Source: an uncultured Candidatus Saccharibacteria bacterium
GTDB taxonomy: Bacteria; Patescibacteriota; Minisyncoccia; Phycocordibacterales; Phycocordibacteraceae
Length of the DNA: 64,000 nt
Direction of reading: 5' to 3'
NCBI GenBank assembly: GCA_964402535.1
Contig: CAYOCH010000003.1
Coordinates: forward strand, 1,825-65,824
Positions 2,308 through 39,115 of the stretch are shown here, piece by piece. Both the position numbers and the translations under genes were made by a program. Below the pieces are notes generated by a model that saw only the letters and a list, made by a program, of their open reading frames with translations, made no database searches and was not told where the DNA came from. The stretch's first letter is position 1. The number at the start of each line of letters is the position of its first letter.

Positions 2308-3882
2308 ATGACAGCCGCGCGACCGACAGCACCCTCGGTTCGTAGCGCACAGCAGAAATCATTGCCGAAGGCCGGCTACGCCAAGACGCTCGCCGCGCAG
2401 CCGGTCGGCTCTGCAGCCGAGCTTGTCTCGGTCGAAGCGGATTTGACGCGCGGCCTCCACAACTTTACCGTCGTCGGGCTCGCCGACAAGGCGGTCGAAG
2501 AGGCGCGCGATCGGATCTCGGCGGCGATTCGCCACTCGGGCTACAAGCCGCCCAAGCAGCAGAACAAACGCATCGTCCTCTCGCTCTCGCCGGCAGACTT
2601 GAAGAAGGAGGGCTCGCACTACGACCTCGCGCTGGCGCTCGCGTACCTCACGGCCGCGGGCGACGTGCCAGAGCTCGCTGACGAAGCGCTCCTCATCGGC
2701 GAGCTCGCGCTCGACGGCACGCTGCGCGCGGTGAAGGGCGTGCTGCCGCAGGTGCTCGCTGCGAAGCGTCGCGGGACGAAGACCGTCTTCGTGCCGCCGG
2801 ATAATGCGCGTGAGGCGCTTCTCGCCGACGGCATCGCGGTCTTCGCTCCCGAGTCGCTCGCTGACCTGCTCGCGCACGTGAGGGGCGAGAAGAGCCTCCC
2901 GCGCCTTGCGCGCAACCGGCAGACACAGCTCCCGCCGCCGGCGCTCGACCTTGCCGATGTGAAAGGGCAGGAGAGCGCGAAGCGTGCCCTCGAGATCGCC
3001 GCCGCCGGCCGGCACAACATCGTCTTCTACGGGCCGCCCGGCACCGGCAAGACGATGCTCGCTCGTGCGCTCTCCGGCATCTTGCCGCCACTCACCGACG
3101 ACGAGATGCTCGAGGTGACGGCGATCCACTCGACGGCCGGCATCTTGGGCGGGAGCGAGGCGGTGTATTGGCCGCCCTTCCGCGCGCCGCACCACTCGAT
3201 ATCACACGTGGCGATTGTAGGTGGCGGCGCATTCCCTAAGGCTGGCGAGGTGACTTTGGCGCACAAGGGCGTACTCTTTCTTGATGAATTCCCCGAGTTC
3301 GACTCACGCACACTCGAGGCGCTGCGGCAGCCCTTGGAGGATCGCGTCGTGACGGTCTCGCGAGCGCGAGCGACCATCACCTTCCCGGCCGATTGCATGA
3401 TCGTCGCGGCGATGAACCCGGCGAACACGCTCTCCGAGGACATGCGCGTCGCGATCCGCGAAGCGCAGAAACAGGCGCGACGCATCAGCCGCCCGATCGT
3501 CGACCGCCTCGATCTCTGGATCGAGGTGCCTTTGGTGCCGCACGATACGCTCTCTAAGCTCGGGAGCGGCGAGCCGTCGGCAGAGGTGCGTAAGCGCGTC
3601 GTCACGGCGCGCACTCGTGTCGAGAAGCGCACTGGCAGGCGCGGGGCGACCAACGGCGCCCTGACCGGCCGCGAGCTCGACGAGAAGAGCGGCTTCACTG
3701 TCGCCTCTAAGGAGGCGCTCACCACTGCCGCGTCTCGCTTGAACCTCTCGCCTCGCTCGTATCACCGCACGATGCGCGTCGCGCGCACGATCGCCGACCT
3801 CGCGGGCGCAGAGGCAGTCACGCCGGCGCACATCCACGAGGCGCTCCAGTACCGTCCCCGCGGCCTGTTCGGATTCGAGTGA
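2308..3882 (+). CDS. yifB: YifB/ComM family Mg-chelatase-like AAA+ ATPase
   Basis: 524 aa. N-terminal Lon-protease-like fold ([24 protein letters not shown]), Walker [14 protein letters not shown], Walker [10 protein letters not shown] and the C-terminal ChlI-like domain. Confidence 0.85.
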
Positions 3883-3886
3883 AAAG

Positions 3887-3913
3887 CATTTAAATTTTAA
3901 AATATTTAAATAC
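3887..3913. repeat. AT-rich imperfect palindrome ATTTAAAT-TTTAAAAT-ATTTAAAT at the left edge of a low-GC island
   Basis: Seen directly in the sequence. Related TTTAAAT/GTTTAAAC palindromes recur at 4183-4220, 4398-4412 and 15894-15917. Confidence 0.6.
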
Positions 3914-3922
3914 ATAATAAGT

Positions 3923-4393
3923 ATGGCGACGGTCGAACGGTTCGAGGACCTACTGATGTTCAAGAAGGCACGCGAATTGACGAAGGACGTATATCGCTCT
4001 CTCGCGTCGTGCAGAGATGCCGGTTTTCGCGACCAGATCCAGCGCGCATCCGTCTCGATCGTGTCGAACATCGCAGAAGGGTTCGAGAGCGGGACGAGAC
4101 AGGAATTCCTGAATTACCTGTATATCGCTAAAGCGTCAGCAGGTGAGGTGCGAGCGCAGATCTATGTCGGTCACGACATCGGCTATTTCAATATTGAAAT
4201 GTTTAAACATTTGAAGGCTCTCGCGGAGGAGTGCAGCCGCCTCGTCGCGAGCTTCGCAAAGAAGCTAAAAGCGGGAGGTAAGCTCGGCACGCAATTCAAG
4301 CACATGCCGCGTAAGGATGTCGCCCTCGAAATGCTCACCGCCGCCGGCTACGAACGTCTCCCGAACGGGCAGGTAGTCGAGAAAAAGCCTTGA
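3923..4393 (+). CDS. four-helix-bundle protein (23S rRNA intervening-sequence protein family)
   Basis: 156 aa. The FKKARELTKDVY...IVSNIAEGFESGTRQEFLNYLYIAKASAGEVRAQIYV pattern matches the TIGR02436 four-helix-bundle family. GC content is markedly lower than the flanks, which are AT-rich. Confidence 0.75.
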   Translation: MATVERFEDLLMFKKARELTKDVYRSLASCRDAGFRDQIQRASVSIVSNIAEGFESGTRQEFLNYLYIAKASAGEVRAQIYVGHDIGYFNIEMFKHLKALAEECSRLVASFAKKLKAGGKLGTQFKHMPRKDVALEMLTAAGYERLPNGQVVEKKP

Positions 4394-4481
4394 AATATTT
4401 CAATCTTTAAACATGTATATACGGCAAGCCTTGCGCACCACGTAGTGTTGCGAGGGGGAGCAGAAGCGATATGCTTGACCC

Positions 4482-4889
4482 ATGGAAAACCTTGAAAAGC
4501 CGGTCAGTCCTACAAATGCTGATGAAGGTCGCTTGGGAGAAGAAGAAGCTCGTGAACTCGCAAATATGCAACGGGCCGCAATAAATGCCGATCCGGAGAT
4601 GACGGCTAATACATTCGAGGACGGATTATTTGAGGAAACCACGGCTGCAGATTACGATAGTGCGTTGCAGGCGATCGAAGAACTCAAAAAGCTTTCGGCA
4701 GAGGAACCGGCAACTGAAAAAGTACTATCTGCGTTAGCTCGCGCTTCAGAGGTAGGCCGCTTTCTCGTGATGAATGCTATCAGCACGGGCTGGTACGGGG
4801 CATACGATTTTGAGGAGAAGATGCAGAAACTCGAGGATGCGTCAGCGAAACTTCGTGCCCTCAAGGAAAAGGCGAAGCAATATTCATAA
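4482..4889 (+). CDS. hypothetical acidic protein
   Basis: 135 aa ORF in the same low-GC island; acidic, helical-looking, no known motif. Confidence 0.45.
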   Translation: MENLEKPVSPTNADEGRLGEEEARELANMQRAAINADPEMTANTFEDGLFEETTAADYDSALQAIEELKKLSAEEPATEKVLSALARASEVGRFLVMNAISTGWYGAYDFEEKMQKLEDASAKLRALKEKAKQYS

Positions 4890-4943
4890 CAAGAGATGAG
4901 AAGCCCCGCGGCGCGAAGCGCCGCGGGGCTGTTTCATTTCGCG

Positions 4944-5942
4944 TCACTGCGGGTTGCAGACCGCGCCGAGAGAGCAGTCACGGAGGGGGTTTGCGGCGCC
5001 GCGAACCTCGAAGTGGAGGTGTGGGCCGGTCGAAAGACCCGTTGCGCCGACGTAGCCGATCGTCTGTCCGGCGAGGACGGATTGACCCGGCGAGACGATC
5101 GAACGCGACATGTGCGAGTAGAGCGTCTGCGTGCCGTTGTCGTGCGTGATCACGACGTAGTTGCCGTAGCCGCCGTTCCAGCCGCCGTTGTTGCGCGAGA
5201 TGATGACTGTGCCGTCGGCTGCGGCGCGGATCGGCGTACCGCGTGCAGCCGCGAGGTCGACGCCGTTCCAGCCATGGAGACCTTGTGTGAGAATCGCGCC
5301 GGGTAACGGATCAATGTAGTAGTCATCCTGCGCTGCTCCGCTGCCGCCCAAGTACGGCTCCTTGCCGACGCGTCTCACGGGCGTCTTGGCCTTCGGCGCT
5401 ACCGGAGAGATCTCTGCCCCCGGGATGATGATCGTCGAACCGACCGCCAAGGGCGCGGCCGGATCGAGTCCGTTGAACTGCGCGATCTCTTCTGCGTCGG
5501 CGTTGTACTTCTTGGCAATCGACTTGAGCGTGTCTCCCGCGATGATGGTGCGCTTCACGCCAGAGATCGGGAGGATGATGAGCGTATCGCCGACGCGGAC
5601 GTCATTGATACCGGAAAGATTGTTCGCCCAAATGATGGTATTCACGGAAATGTTGAACATCTTCGCGATCACCGAGAGCGTGTCGCCCGGGCGGACCACA
5701 TAGACGGAGATGCGGTCGGACTGCGTCGTGCCGACGATATCGGCCGTCGTGCCGGCGGGGCCAGAGTTGGCTACAAGCGCGTTGTCGCTCGAGGTCTGGA
5801 CGGCGCCGATGCCCTTGTCCGGGTTCGGATCCATATTGATCGCCGCGGCAAGGACCGGAGTGGCCGAGGCTGGCACGGAGGCGGCCACCGCCGCGTCGGC
5901 GTTAGACGAAAAAGGCCAAAACGCGTGGGCGCGCTTCGGCAT
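4944..5942 (-). CDS. M23 family metallopeptidase with two LysM domains
   Basis: Two LysM repeats (YVVRPGDTLSVIAKMFNISVNTIIWANNL; DTLKSIAKKYNADAEEIAQFNGL) and a C-terminal M23 domain (HxxxD...HLHFEVR). An in-frame upstream stretch encodes a TM segment but has no ATG/GTG/TTG, so the true start is uncertain. Confidence 0.85.
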   Translation of the reverse strand: MPKRAHAFWPFSSNADAAVAASVPASATPVLAAAINMDPNPDKGIGAVQTSSDNALVANSGPAGTTADIVGTTQSDRISVYVVRPGDTLSVIAKMFNISVNTIIWANNLSGINDVRVGDTLIILPISGVKRTIIAGDTLKSIAKKYNADAEEIAQFNGLDPAAPLAVGSTIIIPGAEISPVAPKAKTPVRRVGKEPYLGGSGAAQDDYYIDPLPGAILTQGLHGWNGVDLAAARGTPIRAAADGTVIISRNNGGWNGGYGNYVVITHDNGTQTLYSHMSRSIVSPGQSVLAGQTIGYVGATGLSTGPHLHFEVRGAANPLRDCSLGAVCNPQ

Positions 5943-9436: not shown

Positions 9437-10471
9437 ATGGGGGAACCGATCCAAGCCAATTGGCGCGTCCTGGCCGCATCACTCGTTGCCGCCGTTCTCG
9501 TGATCGGTGCCTACGTCCTTGCGCGGGGCGTCGAGTCGTCGGATGTCGCACAAGCCTCGACCGAGACGGCGCTCCTGCAGGCGATCGCGGCGAAAGATTC
9601 TGACAACGACGGCCTCCCCGACTGGGAGGAGGCGCTCTACGGCACCGATCCGTACGCGGTCGACACCTTCAACCTCGGGATGACCGACGGCGCCGCTGTC
9701 GCCAAAGGGCTCATCGTCCCGAAGGCGATCGCCACCATCTCCTCGGCGACCTCGACGGCGCCTCTTTCAAGCGACGTGGACTACAAGAAGCTCGGCATCG
9801 CGGCGCCGAATGAGGGCTCACTGACCGACGCATTCGCCAAGAGCTTCTTCACCTACTACGCCGAGACCAAAAAGACCAAGGGCGGCGACCTCTCGCAGGC
9901 GGACATCGACGCGATCGAGCAGCAGGCGCTCGACTCGCTCTCCTCCACAATAGCCAAGGCGCCGGATTACAAATCGGCGAGCGATCTTGCTGTCTCGGGC
10001 TCCGGGCCGGACGCGCTCCGCGCCTTTGCCGTGCAGGCCGAGGCGATCTTCAAGAAGAACACGAGCATGGCGACGACGAGCGAGCTCGTGTATCTGCAAT
10101 ATGCGGCAGAGAGCAACGATGCAAAGGCGGTTGCAGCGCTCGAGTCGATCGCGCAGGCGTATCGTGCAGCGGCTGCCGGGCTCGCCGTGCTGCCGGTGCC
10201 GCGCGAGCTCGCGTCAGCGGACCTCGCGCTCATCAATGCGATGGCGCGCGTGAGCGGGATCGTCGAGAACTTCGCCCAAGTGAACAGCGACCCCTTGGTC
10301 GCGATGATGGCGCTCGAACAGTACACGGCGGCGGCGCAAGACCTGGGTGCAGCGTTTGCGAATATCGCAAATGATTATGCGGTTGCCGGTGTTACGCTCG
10401 ACAAGGGGGCGCCCGGCGCCTCGTTCGTGGGCGTGAGCGCGGCTGCCGCGCGTATCCAGCCTGCACCATGA
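9437..10471 (+). CDS. membrane-anchored protein with a DSDNDGLPDWEE (TSP3/dockerin-like Ca-binding) motif
   Basis: 344 aa: N-terminal TM helix, then the D-x-D-x-D-G motif and an Ala-rich extracellular region. Its stop overlaps the next gene (ATGA). Confidence 0.6.
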   Translation: MGEPIQANWRVLAASLVAAVLVIGAYVLARGVESSDVAQASTETALLQAIAAKDSDNDGLPDWEEALYGTDPYAVDTFNLGMTDGAAVAKGLIVPKAIATISSATSTAPLSSDVDYKKLGIAAPNEGSLTDAFAKSFFTYYAETKKTKGGDLSQADIDAIEQQALDSLSSTIAKAPDYKSASDLAVSGSGPDALRAFAVQAEAIFKKNTSMATTSELVYLQYAAESNDAKAVAALESIAQAYRAAAAGLAVLPVPRELASADLALINAMARVSGIVENFAQVNSDPLVAMMALEQYTAAAQDLGAAFANIANDYAVAGVTLDKGAPGASFVGVSAAAARIQPAP

Positions 10472-12132
10472 ACACGCGCTTCGCATCAAGGGTGATCGTC
10501 GCACTGCTCGCCGTCGGCATCATCGCTCCGGCGTTCCTCGTGCCGCAGCGCGCGTCGGCACAGGTGGCGAGCGCAGCAGGGGCGGCATCGTGCTTTGCCG
10601 CCGGCGGTGTCGGTCTCGCAGGCGGCGCGGCCTCTGCAGTGCTCTCGGTGCCTGTGAATGACATGGCGAACCTGGCGCAGAACACGTTCACCGCCGGCGC
10701 GACGCAAGGCGACTGCATCAAGAACAACATCATCACGCCGCTCGCACGGCTCATGGCGCGCATCGTGATCCAGCAGATCACGGCGAGCACAATCAACTGG
10801 ATCACCGGGCGTAACGGCACCGGCCAGCCGACGTTCGTGACGAATCTCTCCCTCAATCTGCAGGCCGTCGGCGACGCGGTCGCGCTCTCGTATATCTCTC
10901 GCGTGACGACTGCCTTCAACTCGCCCTTCGGCCCGATGATCGCGCAGTCGCTCCAGCTCCAGTACAACCAGCAGTCGAGCCTCGCAGGCTTCTTCGCAGC
11001 GAATCAGTCCACGCTCAACCGGTGGTCGCCGAATCCGAATGCCTTCCTTTCCGGACAGTGGGCGCAGGGCGGGATCCCTGCGTGGTTCGCGCTCACGACG
11101 CAGACGCAGAACAACCCGTACACGCTGTATCAGGCAGCAGAAGGGCAGCTCAGATCGAACCTCTCTCAAGCAGAGACGAACCGCCGCCAGGACATCGCGC
11201 AAGGGGGCGGCTTCCTCTCGTGGTGCGGCGTGACGGACGCGGCAGCGCAGGATCAGAGCTCCGCAGCCGGCGGAGGCGCCAATCCGGGTGATGCCTGCAC
11301 CAACAGCGACGGAACGCCGGGGACCGTTCAGACACCGGGTTCGGCGATCCACGACTATGCGCAGAAAGCGATCGTCGGCGCCGGGCTCGACCAGCTCGTC
11401 TCGGTGACCGACATAGATCAGGCGCTCGGCGCGATCGCGATGGCGCTCGTCAACCAGGTACTCGGGAATGGCGGTCTCTTGGGCGCCGGCACGCCGCTGC
11501 CGGGGCGGCCGCCGATAACAAACCAGCTCCAGGCCTACTCGGGTGATACGTCCGCGAACACGGGATCCTCGTCGTCGTTCGCCGGCGCGATGCTCTCGCG
11601 CATCACTGCCTACAAGGCCGCGTGGGGGACTATCACCTCCTCGGCGGACGTCGCCTCCTCGAGCCTCAACAGGCTCGTGACCTACTGCAACTCGCAGGCG
11701 ACGGATCCGAACGCGCTGCAGGGGGTGATCAACGCGAATGTCGCAGCGGCGCAGGCGGCGCTCGCGACCGAGGTCGCGCCGATCTACACTCAAGCCGGGC
11801 AGGCGATCGCCGCGACCGACCCGACGAAGGCGCTCGCGCTCAAGGTGCAGGCAGAGTCCTCGAGCGTGACCTCGACAACGACAGCCGCGACGATCGCGGC
11901 GGACACGGGCGTCTTGGCGACCGCCGCCCCGACCGTGAGCGACCTCACATCCGTGCAGCAGAACGCCTCGGTGATGAACGGCGCCAAGGCGAACCCAGCG
12001 GGCTCGCTCACGGTCGCGGGCGGCTCGCTCGTCGATCAGATGAACCTGATCACGACGAACGCGGCGGCGCTCCAGGCCGCCTGCACGCCGAATGCAGCGA
12101 ACGGACCAAGTGTCATCACTCCGACAGGATAA
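10468..12132 (+). CDS. large secreted Ala/Thr/Gln/Asn-rich protein (hypothetical surface protein)
   Basis: 554 aa with a signal peptide (MNTRFASRVIVALLAVGIIAPAFLVPQRASAQVAS) and low-complexity hydrophilic composition; translationally coupled to its neighbours. Confidence 0.6.
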   Translation: MNTRFASRVIVALLAVGIIAPAFLVPQRASAQVASAAGAASCFAAGGVGLAGGAASAVLSVPVNDMANLAQNTFTAGATQGDCIKNNIITPLARLMARIVIQQITASTINWITGRNGTGQPTFVTNLSLNLQAVGDAVALSYISRVTTAFNSPFGPMIAQSLQLQYNQQSSLAGFFAANQSTLNRWSPNPNAFLSGQWAQGGIPAWFALTTQTQNNPYTLYQAAEGQLRSNLSQAETNRRQDIAQGGGFLSWCGVTDAAAQDQSSAAGGGANPGDACTNSDGTPGTVQTPGSAIHDYAQKAIVGAGLDQLVSVTDIDQALGAIAMALVNQVLGNGGLLGAGTPLPGRPPITNQLQAYSGDTSANTGSSSSFAGAMLSRITAYKAAWGTITSSADVASSSLNRLVTYCNSQATDPNALQGVINANVAAAQAALATEVAPIYTQAGQAIAATDPTKALALKVQAESSSVTSTTTAATIAADTGVLATAAPTVSDLTSVQQNASVMNGAKANPAGSLTVAGGSLVDQMNLITTNAAALQAACTPNAANGPSVITPTG

Positions 12133-12133
12133 T

Positions 12134-14479
12134 ATGCGACGCTTCCTTTCAACACTCATCGTGATGGTCGCGCTCATGGGCGCGGCCGGCGCAGCGCCGG
12201 CCGCGTATGCACAGGCCACGGCAGACCCGGGGCTGGACGGCTATGCGACTGACGAGTCAGGCAACGCGTATACGCAAGCGCAAATCGATGCGACCAATGC
12301 GGCCGGCCAAGCCGGCGTCGCGCAGACAGTGCAGCAGATGACGAATCCGAGCGATGCAAAGAAGTCGATCGATCCGAATGCTAGCAAAGACGCCGGCTCC
12401 CAGTACGGCTCTGTGATGACGTGGATCATGACGCTCTTCGCCTGGCTCGTCGGCGTCGCGGCGCTCCTCCTCGACAACGCGGTCTACTTCACCGTCGTGA
12501 AGATGGGCGATTACATCCGCAACCTATCGGCCGTCGGCGTCACGTGGCGGATCCTCCGGGATATCGGGAACATATTCCTCATCTTCGGCTTCATCTTCGG
12601 CGGCATCGCGACGATCCTGAACATGGATATCTACGGCTGGGGCAAGAAGATGCTCCCGATGCTCATCGTCGGTGCCGTGTTCATCAACTTCTCGCTCTTC
12701 TTCGCCGAGGCGGTGATCGACGTCGGCAACCTCTTTGCGACGCAATTCTATACGCAGATCAATGGGGGGCGTGCTTCGAGCCCGCAATCATTCGGTTCCG
12801 GTTTCGGCGTCCGGCTGCAGAATGAAGGGATATCAAACGTGCTGATGGCAAAACTCGGGCTGCAGACCATCTACGGCGATGCAGCGAAGAATACCAAGCT
12901 GTTCAAGGCGGATAACACCTGGGTGATCGGCTTCATGGGCATCCTCCTGTTCATCGTCACGGCTTTCGTCCTCTTCTCGCTCTCGTTCGTGCTTATCGCG
13001 CGCTTCGTGATGCTCCTCTTCATCATAATATTTTCGCCGATCGGGATCGTAGGCCTCGCGGTGCCCAAGCTCGGCAAGCTCGCGAAACAGTGGTGGGATA
13101 CGCTCTTCGAACAGACTGTCACGGCGCCGCTCCTGCTCTTGTGCCTCTATATCGCACTCGCCGTCATCTCTGACGCGTCCTTTCTCTCGAGCGACACGAG
13201 CGCGGTGGGTTGGGTGAACGGCGACTTCCAGGGCTTCGCGAGCTTTATCCTCTCGTTCCTCATCGCGATGGGGCTCTTGCTTGCCGTGGTACTCATCGCT
13301 AAGAAGCTCTCTGCCGCCGGCGCCGACTGGGCATCGCGAACTGCTGGCACGCTCACGTTCAGCGCTACCGCGCTAGGGCTCCGTTATACGGCGGGGAAGG
13401 GTTCGGATGCGCTTGCGCGCAAAGTGCGTGAGAGCAAGACGCTTAACAGCACGGCGCTCGGACGATTCGCTAGTCGGAAAGTTGCAGGCGCGTTCGACTA
13501 TGGCGCGACCGCGAACTATCATATCGGGGCAGCGGCGAACAAGATCCCGGCTCTCTCTGGCATCGACTACGGCAAGACCCACGAGGGTGGGTATCGTGCG
13601 GAGAAGAAGATCACGGAGGAGTACAAGAAGTCTGCCGAGGACGCGCAGAAGGAGGCTGCGAAGAAGGAACGTGCAGCAGAGGTCAAGAGAGCGATGGAGA
13701 GCGCTGATGCGGAGCTGGACGCAGGCACGATTACTCACGACGAGTATGATGCACGAATCTCCCCGCATCTCGCCAAGATGTCAGCAAAAGAGATAGAGGA
13801 TCTCGACGGGATCAAGAAGGGTACTGAAGAACTCGTCAGGAACCTGTCACCACAGCAGTTCGAGGCACTAATGAAGAGCGATAATTTGAGCCAGTCGCAG
13901 AAAGACGGTATCAAAGAGGCTCGCTTTAGGGACGTTACTGCAAAGATTGCGGCGGCGACCGCGCCTGGCGCGGCACCAGCTGTGATCGCGGATGCACAAG
14001 CGGCCGTTGTGAAGTTGAGTAACAAGGAGCTCGCGCATTTGGACTCAAATACCCTCACGAAAGATTTCGTAGCAGATAACCTGACGAATGATCAGTACGA
14101 ATATATCGGTAAGGAAGGCATACTGAGCGGTGCGCAAAAGACGGCGCTCGATGCACGTCGTAAAAACCGGTTCGATCCCGCAATCACGCCGCACAGTGAC
14201 GTGGCGAACGCGATAAGGTCTCTTAAGTGGAATCGAGATCAGATAAGAAAACTTCCGTCCGCGACTGTTACCAATACCGACGTCTTAAATGACCTGGGTT
14301 CGGAAGCGCTTAACCTTATCGATATTGTTCGGACCGGGAACCTTTCCCCGACAGATCGCCGTCGCCTCGGTACGTACTTCGAAGACATAGCAACTCACCC
14401 GACTGACCCGCGACAGGCAGATTTTGCGGCCTACCTTGCGGCCGATCCACGCATAAAGAGAGATCTTCTCATCACGTAA
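12134..14479 (+). CDS. polytopic membrane protein with long charged C-terminal domain (possibly VirB6/TrbL-like; unverified)
   Basis: Signal peptide MRRFLSTLIVMVALMGAAGAAPAAYA, about 6-7 TM helices over residues ~110-420, then a ~370-aa Lys/Glu/Ala-rich coiled-coil-like tail. The ATG is 1 nt after the upstream stop. Confidence 0.6.
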   Translation: MRRFLSTLIVMVALMGAAGAAPAAYAQATADPGLDGYATDESGNAYTQAQIDATNAAGQAGVAQTVQQMTNPSDAKKSIDPNASKDAGSQYGSVMTWIMTLFAWLVGVAALLLDNAVYFTVVKMGDYIRNLSAVGVTWRILRDIGNIFLIFGFIFGGIATILNMDIYGWGKKMLPMLIVGAVFINFSLFFAEAVIDVGNLFATQFYTQINGGRASSPQSFGSGFGVRLQNEGISNVLMAKLGLQTIYGDAAKNTKLFKADNTWVIGFMGILLFIVTAFVLFSLSFVLIARFVMLLFIIIFSPIGIVGLAVPKLGKLAKQWWDTLFEQTVTAPLLLLCLYIALAVISDASFLSSDTSAVGWVNGDFQGFASFILSFLIAMGLLLAVVLIAKKLSAAGADWASRTAGTLTFSATALGLRYTAGKGSDALARKVRESKTLNSTALGRFASRKVAGAFDYGATANYHIGAAANKIPALSGIDYGKTHEGGYRAEKKITEEYKKSAEDAQKEAAKKERAAEVKRAMESADAELDAGTITHDEYDARISPHLAKMSAKEIEDLDGIKKGTEELVRNLSPQQFEALMKSDNLSQSQKDGIKEARFRDVTAKIAAATAPGAAPAVIADAQAAVVKLSNKELAHLDSNTLTKDFVADNLTNDQYEYIGKEGILSGAQKTALDARRKNRFDPAITPHSDVANAIRSLKWNRDQIRKLPSATVTNTDVLNDLGSEALNLIDIVRTGNLSPTDRRRLGTYFEDIATHPTDPRQADFAAYLAADPRIKRDLLIT

Positions 14480-15893: not shown

Positions 15894-15917
15894 GTTTAAA
15901 TATTTAAACGTTTAAAT
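15894..15917. repeat. perfect 16-bp palindrome GTTTAAATATTTAAAC plus an extra GTTTAAAT in the rpsL-rpsG spacer
   Basis: Seen directly; same motif family as the palindromes flanking the four-helix-bundle island. Confidence 0.6.
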
Positions 15918-15924
15918 TTTTATC

Positions 15925-16389
15925 ATGCGTCGTCCCCTTAAGAAGCAGCGCACCTGGAAGCCGGATCTCAAGTACGGATCTGAGACGCTGACCCGTTTCA
16001 TCAACGCCGTCATGTGGAGCGGCAAGAAGGATGTCGCGCGCGCCGTCGTCTACGATGCGCTCGCCGTGATCGAGAAGGAGGGTGCGAACCCGCTCGAGAC
16101 GTTTGAATCGGCATTGCGAAACGTCTCTCCCTTGATGGAGGTGCGTTCTCGCCGCGTCGGCGGTGCCAACTACCAGGTGCCCCGCGAGGTGCCGCAGGCC
16201 CGCCGCCTCGCACTCTCGTTCCGCTGGCTCATCAACGCCGCCCGCTCGAAGAAGGGTAAGCCGATGGCAGAGAAGCTCGCCGCGGAGCTCCTCCTCGCCG
16301 CCAAGAACGAGGGCGATGCGATCAAGAAGAAGGACGAGATGCACCGCATGGCGGATGCGAACAAGGCTTTCGCCCACTTCGCCTGGTAG
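15925..16389 (+). CDS. rpsG: 30S ribosomal protein S7
   Basis: 154 aa with a conserved S7 core (SPLMEVRSRRVGGANYQVP). Confidence 0.95.
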   Translation: MRRPLKKQRTWKPDLKYGSETLTRFINAVMWSGKKDVARAVVYDALAVIEKEGANPLETFESALRNVSPLMEVRSRRVGGANYQVPREVPQARRLALSFRWLINAARSKKGKPMAEKLAAELLLAAKNEGDAIKKKDEMHRMADANKAFAHFAW

Positions 16390-36957: not shown

Positions 36958-38358
36958 TTGCCTATGTCATTGCGCGTGAGCTTCTACGGCGGAGCAGGGA
37001 AAGTGACCGGCTCCAATTTTTTAGTCGAAACTGACAAAGCGAAGGTACTCGTGGACTGCGGTATCGAGCAGGGTGCGGACTACGCGGTCGAGGAGGTTTA
37101 CGGACCATTCCCATATGACGTCTCTGCGATCGACGCGCTCGTGGTGACGCACGCGCACCTCGACCACGTGGGCAGGATCCCCAAGCTCATGCGGGACGGC
37201 TTCAGGGGCAAGATATACATGACGCCGCCGACCAAAGATTTGGCGACACTGATCCTTCTTGATTCGCTGAATATCCTCACGCAGGAGGCGATCCGGCTCG
37301 GGCGCCAGCCCCTCTACACCGACGTGGACGTCGAGGCGGCGATGCTCGCGACCGAGTCACTCGACTATCACGTCGAGAAGGAGATCGCTCCCGGTCTCTC
37401 GCTCTACTTGCGCAACACGGGGCACATCCTCGGCTCTGCGAGCGTGCGGCTCAAGGATTCAGACGGTACGTCGGTCGCCTTCACGGGCGACATCGGCAAC
37501 TCACCGTCACCTTTGCTGCCGAACTGGGAGGCGGTTCCAGATGCCGACGCGCTCATTATGGAGAGCACCTACGGCAACAAGGTTCACACCGAGCGGGCGA
37601 CGCGCGACCTGCTGCTGAAGGGTCGTTTGCAACTCGCGATACAACGCGGCGGGACGATCCTCATCCCCGCATTCTCGGTCGAGCGCACGCAGCTGATGCT
37701 CTATGAGCTCTCTAATTTCTTCTCGGCAAGAGACTTGCCCCAGATACCGGTCTTTCTCGACTCACCGCTCGCGATCAACGTGACCAAGATCTACGAGAAG
37801 TGGGGGATGACGTACTTCAAGCCCGAAGCCGAGGACGAGATGCAGCGCGAGGGGAGCCTCTTCGAGTTCCCGTTCTTGCAGAAGACTGCGGCGCACCAGG
37901 ACTCTGAGGCGATCGCGGCTATCCCGGGGCCGAAGATCATCATCGCCGGCGCCGGGATGAGCCACGGCGGCCGCATCGGCCGCTGGGAGACGCGCTATCT
38001 GCCGGACCCCAAGTCGACCATCTTCATGGTCGGCTACCAGGCGCCGGGTACGCCCGGTCGCCGCATACTCGACGGAGAGCCGAGAGCGCAGATTAATGGC
38101 GAAGAGGTGAACGTACGTGCGAAAGTCGAAAAGCTCGAGGGCTGGTCTGCGCACGCCGATCGCGACGGTCTCATCCGCTTTGCTGAGGCGGCGCTCAAGG
38201 AGAAGCGCCCCAAGGCGATCTTCACCGCGCATGGCGAGCCCGCTGCAGAGCGCTTCTTGGCGCAGCGCATCCACGACTACCTCGGCGCTCGCGCCATCGT
38301 CCCCGACATGGGCTCGACATGGGAGGTATCTAAAGAGTCGGTGGTTAACGTTGCTTGA
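36958..38358 (+). CDS. MBL-fold beta-CASP family ribonuclease/hydrolase (CPSF/RNase J-like)
   Basis: 466 aa with the HAHLDH metallo-beta-lactamase motif, then beta-CASP motifs and a C-terminal RNA-metabolising MBL domain. Confidence 0.8.
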   Translation: MPMSLRVSFYGGAGKVTGSNFLVETDKAKVLVDCGIEQGADYAVEEVYGPFPYDVSAIDALVVTHAHLDHVGRIPKLMRDGFRGKIYMTPPTKDLATLILLDSLNILTQEAIRLGRQPLYTDVDVEAAMLATESLDYHVEKEIAPGLSLYLRNTGHILGSASVRLKDSDGTSVAFTGDIGNSPSPLLPNWEAVPDADALIMESTYGNKVHTERATRDLLLKGRLQLAIQRGGTILIPAFSVERTQLMLYELSNFFSARDLPQIPVFLDSPLAINVTKIYEKWGMTYFKPEAEDEMQREGSLFEFPFLQKTAAHQDSEAIAAIPGPKIIIAGAGMSHGGRIGRWETRYLPDPKSTIFMVGYQAPGTPGRRILDGEPRAQINGEEVNVRAKVEKLEGWSAHADRDGLIRFAEAALKEKRPKAIFTAHGEPAAERFLAQRIHDYLGARAIVPDMGSTWEVSKESVVNVA

Positions 38359-38403
38359 CTGATAGGTTAACATTTGTTAACCTAATGATTGCATAGGGTT
38401 AAC
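38343..38403. promoter_or_regulatory. operator array of GGTTAAC half-sites
   Basis: AGGTTAAC-ATTT-GTTAACCT perfect palindrome (38364-38383), extra GGTTAAC copies at 38343 and 38397, TTGACT at 38355; immediately upstream of an HTH gene. Confidence 0.6.
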
Positions 38404-38414
38404 AACAGAATCGC

Positions 38415-38690
38415 ATGGAAAACAAAGGTAGAAAGGCCATCTTCATATCAGTAACCGAGCTTGCAAACATGCTCGGTGTGAGCCGTGTCGCCGTCTTTAA
38501 GAGGATTAAGAAGGGCCAGATTCCGGCGGAGAAGATCGGGCGGGCCTACGCGATATCGATGGAACACGTCACCGAACTCATCAATGGTACGAAGGTGTTG
38601 ACCGAAAGCAAGAAAGCTGAGATACGGGAGGCCGTCGAGAAGGTCGTAAGGGAATACGGCGAGACGCTCCGTCTGCTTGGTAAAGAGTAG
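38415..38690 (+). CDS. excisionase-family HTH DNA-binding protein (probable antitoxin of a Doc-type TA pair)
   Basis: 91 aa; the ISVTELANMLGVSRVAVFKRIKKGQIPAEKIGRAYAI HTH_17/excisionase motif; 3 nt upstream of the Doc-like gene; low GC. Confidence 0.7.
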   Translation: MENKGRKAIFISVTELANMLGVSRVAVFKRIKKGQIPAEKIGRAYAISMEHVTELINGTKVLTESKKAEIREAVEKVVREYGETLRLLGKE

Positions 38691-38692
38691 AT

Positions 38693-39115
38693 ATGCGTGT
38701 CGGACGTCTTACTATCGCAGATATCGAATATGTCGCTCATCGTCTCGCCCGCGAGACGATGACATGGTCTGAACCGATCCCCGACTTCAGCACGCGCTAC
38801 ACGCATGCACTCGAGCGTACGATTGACCAGCCGTTTCAGTCATATGGCGGCAAGCAGCTGTACCAGGGTCTGCTCAAGAAGGCTTCGATACTCTTTTATC
38901 TGATGATCAAGAATCATCCGTTTCAAAACGGCAACAAGCGAATCGCGATGGCAGCTCTCTTCTGGTTCCTCTTTGAAAACAAGAAGTGGCTTCGCGTCGA
39001 TAACCAAGAACTCTACAACTTCGCAAAATGGGTCGCAGAAAGCAATCCGAAGCTCAAGGACGCGACCGTCAGTGCCGTTGAGACGTTTCTGAAAGGGTAT
39101 ATGGTTGATCGCTAG
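38693..39115 (+). CDS. doc: Fic/Doc family protein, Doc (death-on-curing)-type toxin
   Basis: 140 aa with HPFQNGNKR, matching the Doc signature HxFx(D/N)(A/G)NKR. Confidence 0.8.
   Translation: MRVGRLTIADIEYVAHRLARETMTWSEPIPDFSTRYTHALERTIDQPFQSYGGKQLYQGLLKKASILFYLMIKNHPFQNGNKRIAMAALFWFLFENKKWLRVDNQELYNFAKWVAESNPKLKDATVSAVETFLKGYMVDR

Follow-up and report, generated by a model that had tools for sequence, protein, structure and literature searches.

A four-helix-bundle gene accompanied by TTTAAA arrays of 8-bp period at a variable site of a Kaiserbacteria-like genome

In the 64,000 nucleotide stretch of DNA analyzed here (the window), the segment 3885-4900, inserted between yifB and a convergent M23 peptidase gene, encodes a small four-helix-bundle (4HB) protein, and short AT-rich palindromes are found around and within its gene. 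The question raised by this locus is what these repeated sites are; the original prediction, made from the sequence alone, listed ends of a mobile element, binding sites of a regulator and structural AT-tracts. The window is 62% GC, and its proteins match those of Candidatus Kaiserbacteria / Paceibacterota metagenome-assembled genomes (MAGs), belonging to the candidate phyla radiation (CPR). As predicted, the segment is a low-GC island: at 0.50 GC, against a window mean of 0.62 (sd 0.034, 1-kb windows), it is the lowest kilobase of the window. It holds two open reading frames (ORFs), the 4HB gene and an unrelated one, orf135. The reading that we tentatively favor is that of an accessory gene-plus-iteron module, in which the arrays would be putative sites to which the 4HB protein, presumably an oligomer, binds, and probably does so on duplex DNA.

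All of the sequence features listed at the outset are present: ATTTAAAT-TTTAAAAT-ATTTAAAT at 3888-3911, TTTCAATATTGAAA and ATGTTTAAACAT at 4186-4215, within the 4HB coding sequence (CDS), TTGAAATATTTCAA..TTTAAACA at 4390-4413, and GTTTAAATATTTAAAC at 15894-15909, where a third unit follows at 15911-15916. The sites are real, but they are better described as in-register TTTAAA-like hexamers, with a period of 8 bp and 3-4 units per site, than as separate palindromes. The upstream array (3889-3918) consists of TTTAAA at 3889, TTAAAA at 3897, TTTAAA at 3905 and a degenerate CATAAT at 3913, and is followed by the ATG, at 3923, of the 4HB gene (3923-4393, forward strand, 156 aa). The intragenic array (4186-4215), TTTCAA-ta-TTGAAA-tg-TTTAAA-ca-TTTGAA, encodes residues Y88-L97, at the turn between helix 3 and helix 4. 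In the downstream array (4390-4419), TTGAAA-ta-TTTCAA-tc-TTTAAA-ca-(TGTATA), the TGA stop codon (4391-4393) lies within the first unit. A solo array, TTTAAA-ta-TTTAAA-cg-TTTAAA (15895-15916), fills the spacer between rpsL and rpsG, its last unit being separated by 8 nt from the start codon of rpsG (ATG at 15925).

No TTTAAA hexamer of the 64 kb lies outside these four clusters, which together contain 8 of them. The 14-mer TTTAAATATTTAAA has 10 matches in the window when up to 2 mismatches are allowed, against 0.00 expected from 100 shuffles. Out of 14 AT-rich patches only four carry the motif, three at the 4HB gene and one at rpsL-rpsG, and no array precedes any of the remaining ~60 genes of the window. 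The arrays surround the 4HB gene only, not the whole island: they bracket and penetrate this gene and leave orf135 outside, so that the notion of motifs marking the island borders has to be abandoned. Two other patches have a similarly low GC (0.50-0.54 over 1 kb, at ~13500-14100 and ~38100-38700); neither contains TTTAAA arrays.

Relatives were collected in two ways: a yifB scan, taking one genome per species, gave 80 Kaiserbacteria-like loci, and a metagenome scan added 80 loci with 4HB homologues of 55-79% identity (single loci are denoted below by L numbers). In the 80 loci of the former set, the 46 kb of yifB-M23 gaps contain 25 occurrences of the strict pattern TTTAAA-N2-TTTAAA, and the other 804 kb contain none. 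Arrays were found in 6 of 6 gaps with a 4HB gene versus 3 of 64 without (Fisher p 6e-7); 24 of these 64 hold 0.3-4 kb of other cargo. When the array distribution was counted over 82 distinct 4HB genes (55-81% identity, 484 kb), 229 of 250 arrays turned out to lie inside the gene (80) or at most 150 nt upstream (97) or downstream (52) of it, and several of the 21 located elsewhere adjoin neighboring cassette ORFs or a second 4HB copy. The strict pattern detects arrays upstream of the ATG in 53 of the 82 homologues, and a relaxed one does so in almost all of them; about 50 of 74 homologues feature downstream arrays of at least two units, no more than 120 nt from the stop codon.

The association is maintained in unrelated contexts. 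Homologues below ~70% identity are not adjacent to yifB, and follow secA or genes for proteins of the LTD, cupredoxin and LamG-like types, still accompanied by arrays. No arrays were found at the tail-less 4HB paralogues of L171 (119 and 121 aa), at the PDDEXK_3 gene of the same locus, or at an L040 paralogue, which is 33% identical. The linkage of arrays to the gene thus holds across lineages and contexts, and the motif family is specific, being tied to the 4HB gene instead of representing random AT-rich spacer. A general intergenic or promoter motif was rejected on the 0 arrays in the 804 kb outside the gap and on the limitation to four clusters among the 14 AT-rich patches.

The array located within the CDS was studied in a codon alignment of 76 distinct 4HB genes, in which synonymous entropy was normalised by degeneracy. 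At codons 88-97 (Y-L-N-I-E-T-F-K-Y/H-L) this entropy is 0.22, against an average of 0.89 elsewhere (Mann-Whitney p 1e-7), and the AT content of third codon positions is ~0.95, compared to ~0.5 in the rest of the gene. In this tract a single codon with A or T at its third position predominates almost to fixation, the counts being TAT 70:4, TTA 59:2, ATT 51:1, GAA 71:0, TTT 73:3, AAA 70:1 and TTA 72:3. The consensus, TTTAAA-ta-TTGAAA-ca-TTTAAA-ta-TTTAAA, is kept in hosts ranging from 31% to 60% GC, and 54 of 74 genes have four units in register; the 2-nt spacers, by contrast, are variable, and with them the amino acid at position 96. Since the hexamers are kept across host GC while the spacers change, protein sequence alone cannot explain the intragenic array, which is under selection at the nucleotide level. 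Structural AT-tracts, the third of the proposals made at the outset, do not fit with the strict 8-bp register and with the constraint on synonymous sites.

The geometry of the arrays points to the kind of molecule which may read them. Hexamers start 8 nt (91 cases) or 16 nt (19 cases) apart; the number of units per array goes from 2 to 10, with a mode of 3-4, and the spacers vary freely. In L050, ten TTTAAACA units immediately precede the 4HB ATG. Hexamer variants are strand-symmetric (TTGAAA 13 vs TTTCAA 12; TTTGAA 11 vs TTCAAA 9), as expected for a palindromic duplex site. Among 71 upstream arrays, 34 leave 8-10 nt between their last unit and the ATG, and 10 leave 1-3 nt. Arrays are also located beyond the terminator hairpin, next to the M23 stop codon, in L083 and L089, and between two convergent stop codons in the gaps of L008, L017, L056 and L044, positions that are of no use to a 4HB mRNA. 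Within-locus spacer similarity, upstream vs internal, is 0.485 vs 0.384 (p 0.0005), a weak similarity that may merely reflect host base composition. By analogy, this geometry would be typical of protein-bound iterons, and strand symmetry, free spacers, variable number of units and arrays lying beyond terminators or between convergent stops favor a protein acting on duplex DNA. Taken as a whole, the sequence data call for a reader that recognizes TTTAAA units at 8-bp register in a sequence-specific manner and is linked to the 4HB subfamily.

The most economical candidate for this reader is the encoded protein, given the exclusive linkage of the arrays to the tail-bearing 4HB subfamily. Profile matches confirmed that the gene between yifB and M23 belongs to PF05635 (E 2.7e-29, 101.9 bits with a cutoff of 33.8) and TIGR02436 (93.2 bits, cutoff 24), a very common family, with at least 7964 matches at E<=0.001 among the best 8000 scored candidates. 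The AlphaFold2 model, based on 43 homologues, has a mean confidence (pLDDT) of 87 and features helices at residues 11-26, 33-55, 59-86 and 91-116, followed by a disordered basic linker and by a short helix with a β-hairpin (residues 133-153). In a Foldseek search the model aligned with 2GSC (TM-score 0.90), 2RLD (0.83-0.89) and the Avd proteins 4DWL and 8UB7 (0.83-0.86, at 14-15% identity); 2GSC and 2RLD, each with 5 chains per entry, are the only structures also matched by sequence. The protein is therefore predicted to adopt the 2GSC/2RLD-like four-helix-bundle fold of its family. Its core is neutral (pI 6.7), while the C-terminal extension (residues 113-156) is basic (pI 10.1). Exact matches to the 4HB protein, and to the S12 protein of the window, came from the same organism only. 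No match for the locus was found in PADLOC, and hence no known defence system.

The relationship of PF05635 to Avd, the accessory protein of diversity-generating retroelements (DGRs), was already known (PMC10053308), and Avd is part of a ribonucleoprotein according to the description of PDB entry 8UB7. The 4HB gene was considered as the Avd of a local DGR, and this possibility was discarded, as no reverse transcriptase is found in the 64 kb (tblastn with the DGR-type enzyme of L089, best E 0.49). DGR-type reverse transcriptases with a LGNLTSQ motif (290 aa) are located just upstream of rpsO in some relatives (L089:899-1771, L090:27-812, L032:100-942), a position held by a XerC/D-like integrase in the organism of the window and in others; they do not track the presence of the 4HB gene. 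No template/variable repeats (TR/VR) or long direct repeats were found in L089:1-7000. Outside DGR Avd, we know of no function for PF05635/TIGR02436 proteins.

In the 80 loci of the yifB scan, the order NYN-orf378-dksA-yifB-<M23-pcrA is conserved, and in most relatives the stop codons of yifB and M23 are 0-80 bp apart. A 4HB homologue, 57-81% identical, occupies the gap in 6 of the 80 species loci, as well as in every close homologue whose contig was checked. Positive loci are scattered on a neighbor-joining tree of yifB, sister taxa differ (L003 vs L083, L018 vs L096, L007 vs L088), and pairwise identities of 4HB and yifB are uncorrelated (rho 0.03, 91 pairs). About one third of the loci contain 0.3-4 kb of unrelated cargo in the gap, such as toxin-antitoxin-like pairs, a Fic-like protein, an enolase and lipoproteins, and this variety identifies the gap as an insertion hotspot. 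Comparison with relatives therefore bears out the island as a presence/absence polymorphism at a conserved site, and its composition is foreign: GC at third codon positions (GC3) amounts to 0.69 in the 4HB gene and to 0.47 in orf135, compared to 0.77-0.88 in the neighbors.

Several cargo gaps (L015:7515-11685, L038:7551-11657, L025:7521-9442, L085:4491-6931) were inspected, and HicAB-like pairs and a 1029-aa secreted protein are also among the cargo; TTTAAA arrays are found in cargo gaps only where a 4HB gene is present. The best tblastn segment for pcrA lies ~2 kb further from the M23 gene in eight relatives (L006, L019, L022, L033, L041, L045, L047, L060) than in the others, as would be expected if an intein, an intron or an extra gene had been inserted in or before pcrA.

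The same distribution could be produced by a small mobile cassette, which integrates at, or brings along, TTTAAANN arrays: the arrays would be its ends or recombination sites, the 8-bp units accumulated target-site duplications or products of slippage, and the solo arrays scars or secondary targets. This explanation, the mobile-element ends of the original prediction, agrees with the patchy presence, the foreign composition and the use of a cargo hotspot, and also with the variable copy number, up to the 10 units of L050. In L035, arrays are found at both gene ends and between cassette ORFs, with a ~32-bp junction repeated three times, and in L104 (~960-1045) a ~36-bp unit, formed by the array and the first 4HB codons (TTTAAAtaTTTAAAtttcctATGGCAAC...), is duplicated in tandem, indicating that arrays are prone to slippage or recombination. 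Classical S23p-bearing intervening sequences (IVSs) of 23S rRNA are, moreover, already viewed as selfish elements of lower GC (PMC4990558). We nevertheless regard cassette ends as unlikely. The island contains no recombinase, transposase or nuclease, neither of its two ORFs resembling a recombinase, and the closest integrase, at a distance of 4 kb, is encoded by a conserved XerC/D-like gene which relatives with an empty site possess as well. Other cargo at the same hotspot is devoid of arrays, the island junctions are arrays of variable unit number with no fixed target-site duplication, and ends alone fail to explain a constrained four-unit array within the CDS. No closely similar copies, which would be a sign of recent transposition, were detected, the two genes of L139 being 68% identical, nor was the cassette found on viral contigs.

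A viral or phage origin was likewise rejected, the protein search having found no relative on viral contigs; the pattern of the internal array had a single, probably chance, match in a giant-virus MAG. In L139 (4934-5452 and 3380-4102), the second 4HB copy carries a hairpin-rich insert in place of the NIAEGFESGT segment, bounded by CCCCGTTAGAAGTC / GACTTCTAACGGGG inverted repeats, with an IS200/Y1 (RAYT-like) ORF nearby; similar hairpin repeats are found in L162.

The rpsL-rpsG array was followed in three other genomes (L179, L181 and L184). In L179, which shares a 73-kb contig with the 4HB-positive locus L085, the spacer contains TTTAAAtaTTTAAA followed by 8 nt and the ATG, with a phasing identical to that of the window. 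In L181 the gap lacks a 4HB gene, and the rpsL-rpsG spacer is 1 nt long and has no array. Given its recurrence in a second 4HB-bearing genome, the link of this array to the island, already suspected in the original prediction, is probably real. In the Colwellbacteria locus L173, an array of three units directly adjoins the ATG of lepA, and L108 has an array upstream of secA, behind which its 4HB gene is located. Small as this sample is, 4HB-bearing genomes repeatedly have arrays in identical phase ahead of genes related to translation. Some other features were noticed around rpsL: in L179 (871-1536), an ORF with a weak Pfam match to Y1_Tnp (IS200-like) and a zinc-ribbon ORF lie just upstream of it; in L184, the 104-nt rpsL-rpsG spacer (9897-10000) features a different repeat, made of ACGAAT-like units, and two extra small ORFs are found between rpsG and fusA (10507-11473).

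Solo arrays before rpsG and lepA and near secA would also be expected if the reader were an unrelated host factor, such as a lineage-specific promoter type, a sigma factor or a nucleoid protein, for which the 4HB gene would simply be the most consistent target. Some arrays hold TTTACA and TATAAA-like units at 8-nt register, which results in weak -35/-10-like pairs with 18-nt spacing, and one such pair, TTTAAA-18-CATAAT, was called in the window. A factor of this kind seems rather improbable, however, as strict arrays are absent outside the gap in the relatives' loci and from the front of the other genes of the window. TTTAAA, furthermore, lacks the A(-11) and T(-7) of the sigma-70 -10 box, and an intragenic copy under synonymous constraint is not what would be expected of a plain promoter.

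The phasing of arrays to the ATG at the 4HB gene, rpsG and lepA invites an explanation at the RNA level. Shine-Dalgarno (SD)-like GGAG/GAGG motifs are almost absent upstream of ATGs in the window (~30 starts sampled, e.g. 243, 2308, 15486, 22907, 34092), and this Kaiserbacteria genome appears therefore to initiate translation independently of SD motifs. In such an organism, the arrays might work as AU-rich, unstructured ribosome landing pads on a read-through transcript; the fact that the 4HB gene is co-directional with the upstream gene in all contexts examined is in line with this. Alternatively, they might be IVS-like ends cut by RNase III, their self-complementary sequences pairing and the cut releasing the 4HB mRNA. 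Classical IVSs have terminal inverted repeats which are cut by this enzyme (PMC4990558), Avd relatives act in a ribonucleoprotein, and any two arrays are ~80% complementary, because TTTAAA units are self-complementary.

Action in RNA is, in our judgement, quite unlikely. Pairs of cognate arrays (5', internal and 3') show no greater complementarity than non-cognate pairs, spacers do not match between the two ends (upstream CA 24, downstream TG only 1), and the fold of 3870-4440 is not better than that of shuffled sequences (z -1.4), its centroid showing no long-range helix. The strand symmetry of hexamer variants is also at odds with a role in RNA, as are the arrays beyond terminators and between convergent stops, which no ATG follows; other cassette genes of the same gaps and genomes, finally, manage without arrays. 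An IVS-like terminal stem or other long-range pairing is disfavored by the lack of cognate-specific complementarity, the unmatched spacers and the poor fold; the arms at 3889-3910 and 4390-4411, although complementary at 82%, consist of A and U only and are interrupted. A location within an rRNA IVS, for which helix 25 or 45 of 23S rRNA would be the place, was dismissed, since no Rfam family was found in the window or in 19 homologue loci and all contexts are protein-coding; none of the homologues examined sits in rRNA, and the suggestion that the motifs are rRNA-IVS boundaries falls with it. The idea of the array as a substitute for the SD motif proved neither needed nor informative, because SD motifs are essentially missing from the genome.

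Of the uses proposed at the outset, that of regulator sites is tentatively favored over that of mobile-element ends, in the form of sites for the encoded protein itself. The 4HB gene is set in three arrays, placed before the start codon, at codons 88-97 and across or just after the stop codon, and these would be cis-acting sites, most probably in duplex DNA, read by an oligomeric protein, most probably 4HB. Occupancy of the start-proximal array would make the gene autoregulated, and the intragenic and 3' arrays would assist such occupancy by cooperative or looping contacts. Solo arrays, at rpsG in the window and at lepA and near secA in relatives, would represent further targets. The module is accessory, coming and going at the yifB-M23 hotspot in Kaiserbacteria and placed behind other co-directional genes in other Paceibacteria. 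The binding of a protein to the arrays, its identity with 4HB, the choice of DNA over RNA and the regulatory outcome are what we infer from these patterns. Binding sites, cassette ends, action in RNA and a host factor are not mutually exclusive explanations: a protein that binds iterons could at once act as a regulator and contribute to the persistence of a selfish cassette.

Several points weigh against a module bound by its 4HB protein. To our knowledge, no PF05635 protein has been demonstrated to bind DNA in a sequence-specific manner, and the nucleic-acid binding of Avd is non-specific. A period of 8 bp sets successive sites ~86 degrees apart on B-DNA, which is unusual for operators. The phasing to the ATG can equally be read as a signal for initiation of transcription or translation. 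Arrays are found in four 'empty' gaps, in genomes that may carry a 4HB gene elsewhere. L184, finally, is 4HB-positive and yet has no TTTAAA array at rpsL-rpsG, and the co-occurrence of the two rests on 4 genomes.

Some elements of the locus are independent of the arrays. To the left, the conserved flank is the yifB/ComM-type gene (2308-3882, forward strand), encoding an AAA+ ATPase of the Mg-chelatase family with Pfam Mg_chelatase, ChlI and Mg_chelatase_C domains; to the right, it is the LysM-M23 peptidase gene (4944-5942, reverse strand). The earlier description of the island had missed both orf135 and the terminator. The latter, a GC-rich intrinsic terminator hairpin (4902-4930) with a 13-bp stem and a T-tract, is common to the two convergent transcription units; comparable hairpins occupy the 55-60 bp gap of the closest 4HB-less relatives, L003 and L057, and the hairpin is a resident element of the empty site.

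orf135 (4482-4889, forward strand, 135 aa) encodes a small, acidic (pI 4.5), all-helical protein without family assignment, for which no match was found in Pfam, NCBIfam, PADLOC or PHROG. It has 59 homologues at E<=1e-3 among 1.8e9 representatives, a small family of proteins of similar size, and is absent from the yifB-M23 gap of every relative (80 loci). With its GC3 of 0.47, it represents the second passenger of the island, and the one acquired more recently. The public gene call (L001:6364-6687) begins at an internal ATG and gives a 107-aa product; the N-terminus of orf135 is kept in 4 close homologues, and the conservation of residues 17-34 in them indicates that the 135-aa frame starting at 4482 is the real one. 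The AlphaFold2 model of the protein was unfit for structure search because of its pLDDT of 51.

A more general proposal may be put forward, although we hold it to be doubtful: orphan Avd / 23S-IVS-type 4HB proteins would be sequence-specific iteron-binding proteins, of which the tail-bearing subfamily of Paceibacteria would recognize 8-bp-spaced TTTAAA, police its own gene by means of the arrays at its 5' and 3' sides and within the CDS, and occupy in addition the start regions of genes of the translation apparatus (rpsG-fusA, lepA, secA). If true, this would provide a first cis-target, and thereby a function, for a family left unexplained since the ORFs of rRNA IVSs were described. A cis-element that travels with one 4HB subfamily and is kept at synonymous sites is, in addition, a concrete and cheap experimental handle (TTTAAANN repeats). 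It would show by what means a very small accessory gene persists in the streamlined genomes of the CPR, and it points to a possible link with the control of the start regions of rpsG-fusA and lepA, in an organism apparently devoid of SD initiation. No reports of TTTAAA 8-bp arrays, of their linkage to a 4HB subfamily or of the synonymous-site constraint were found in the literature, the coverage of which was incomplete.

Among known systems, the closest by family are the 23S rRNA IVSs with an S23p ORF of Leptospira and Coxiella burnetii (PMC4990558). They share with the island the PF05635/TIGR02436 family, a small ORF in a segment of lower GC, mutually complementary AT-rich flanks, a sporadic presence among relatives and a supposed selfish nature. 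In contrast, the 4HB island lies between protein-coding genes and not in rRNA, and its flanks are hexamer arrays of 8-bp period, where IVSs feature a near-perfect 28-bp stem; it lacks cognate complementarity, and has a third array in the CDS and an extra basic C-terminal tail. DGR Avd (4DWL, 8UB7) resembles the 4HB protein in its four-helix-bundle fold, a weak PHROG match to Avd, membership in a pentamer-forming family and a nucleic-acid-associated role, but identity is just 14-15%, and the window contains neither a reverse transcriptase nor TR/VR. We know of no TTTAAA arrays in DGRs.

In RAYT-REP/REPIN systems, too, a gene present in single copy has short palindromic repeats of its own on either side, and rare solo copies of these are found in other spacers. 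The 4HB protein, however, is not an HUH/Y1 enzyme, its repeats are tandem hexamer arrays and not hairpin REPs, and dispersed copies are very few. In ParR-parC of plasmid R1 and in TubR-tubC, short repeats of fixed period stand next to the gene of their binder and serve as both operator and cooperative platform. There the repeats are direct and 11-20 bp long, while those of the 4HB gene are palindromic and of 8 bp; the folds are unrelated, the 4HB module has no partition ATPase or plasmid context, and binding by 4HB is putative. In lac O2 and gal OI, auxiliary operators located inside the CDS permit looping. By analogy with these cases, the three-site layout of the 4HB gene may be likened to sets of operators of which an auxiliary one is intragenic, or to iteron platforms of the centromere type.

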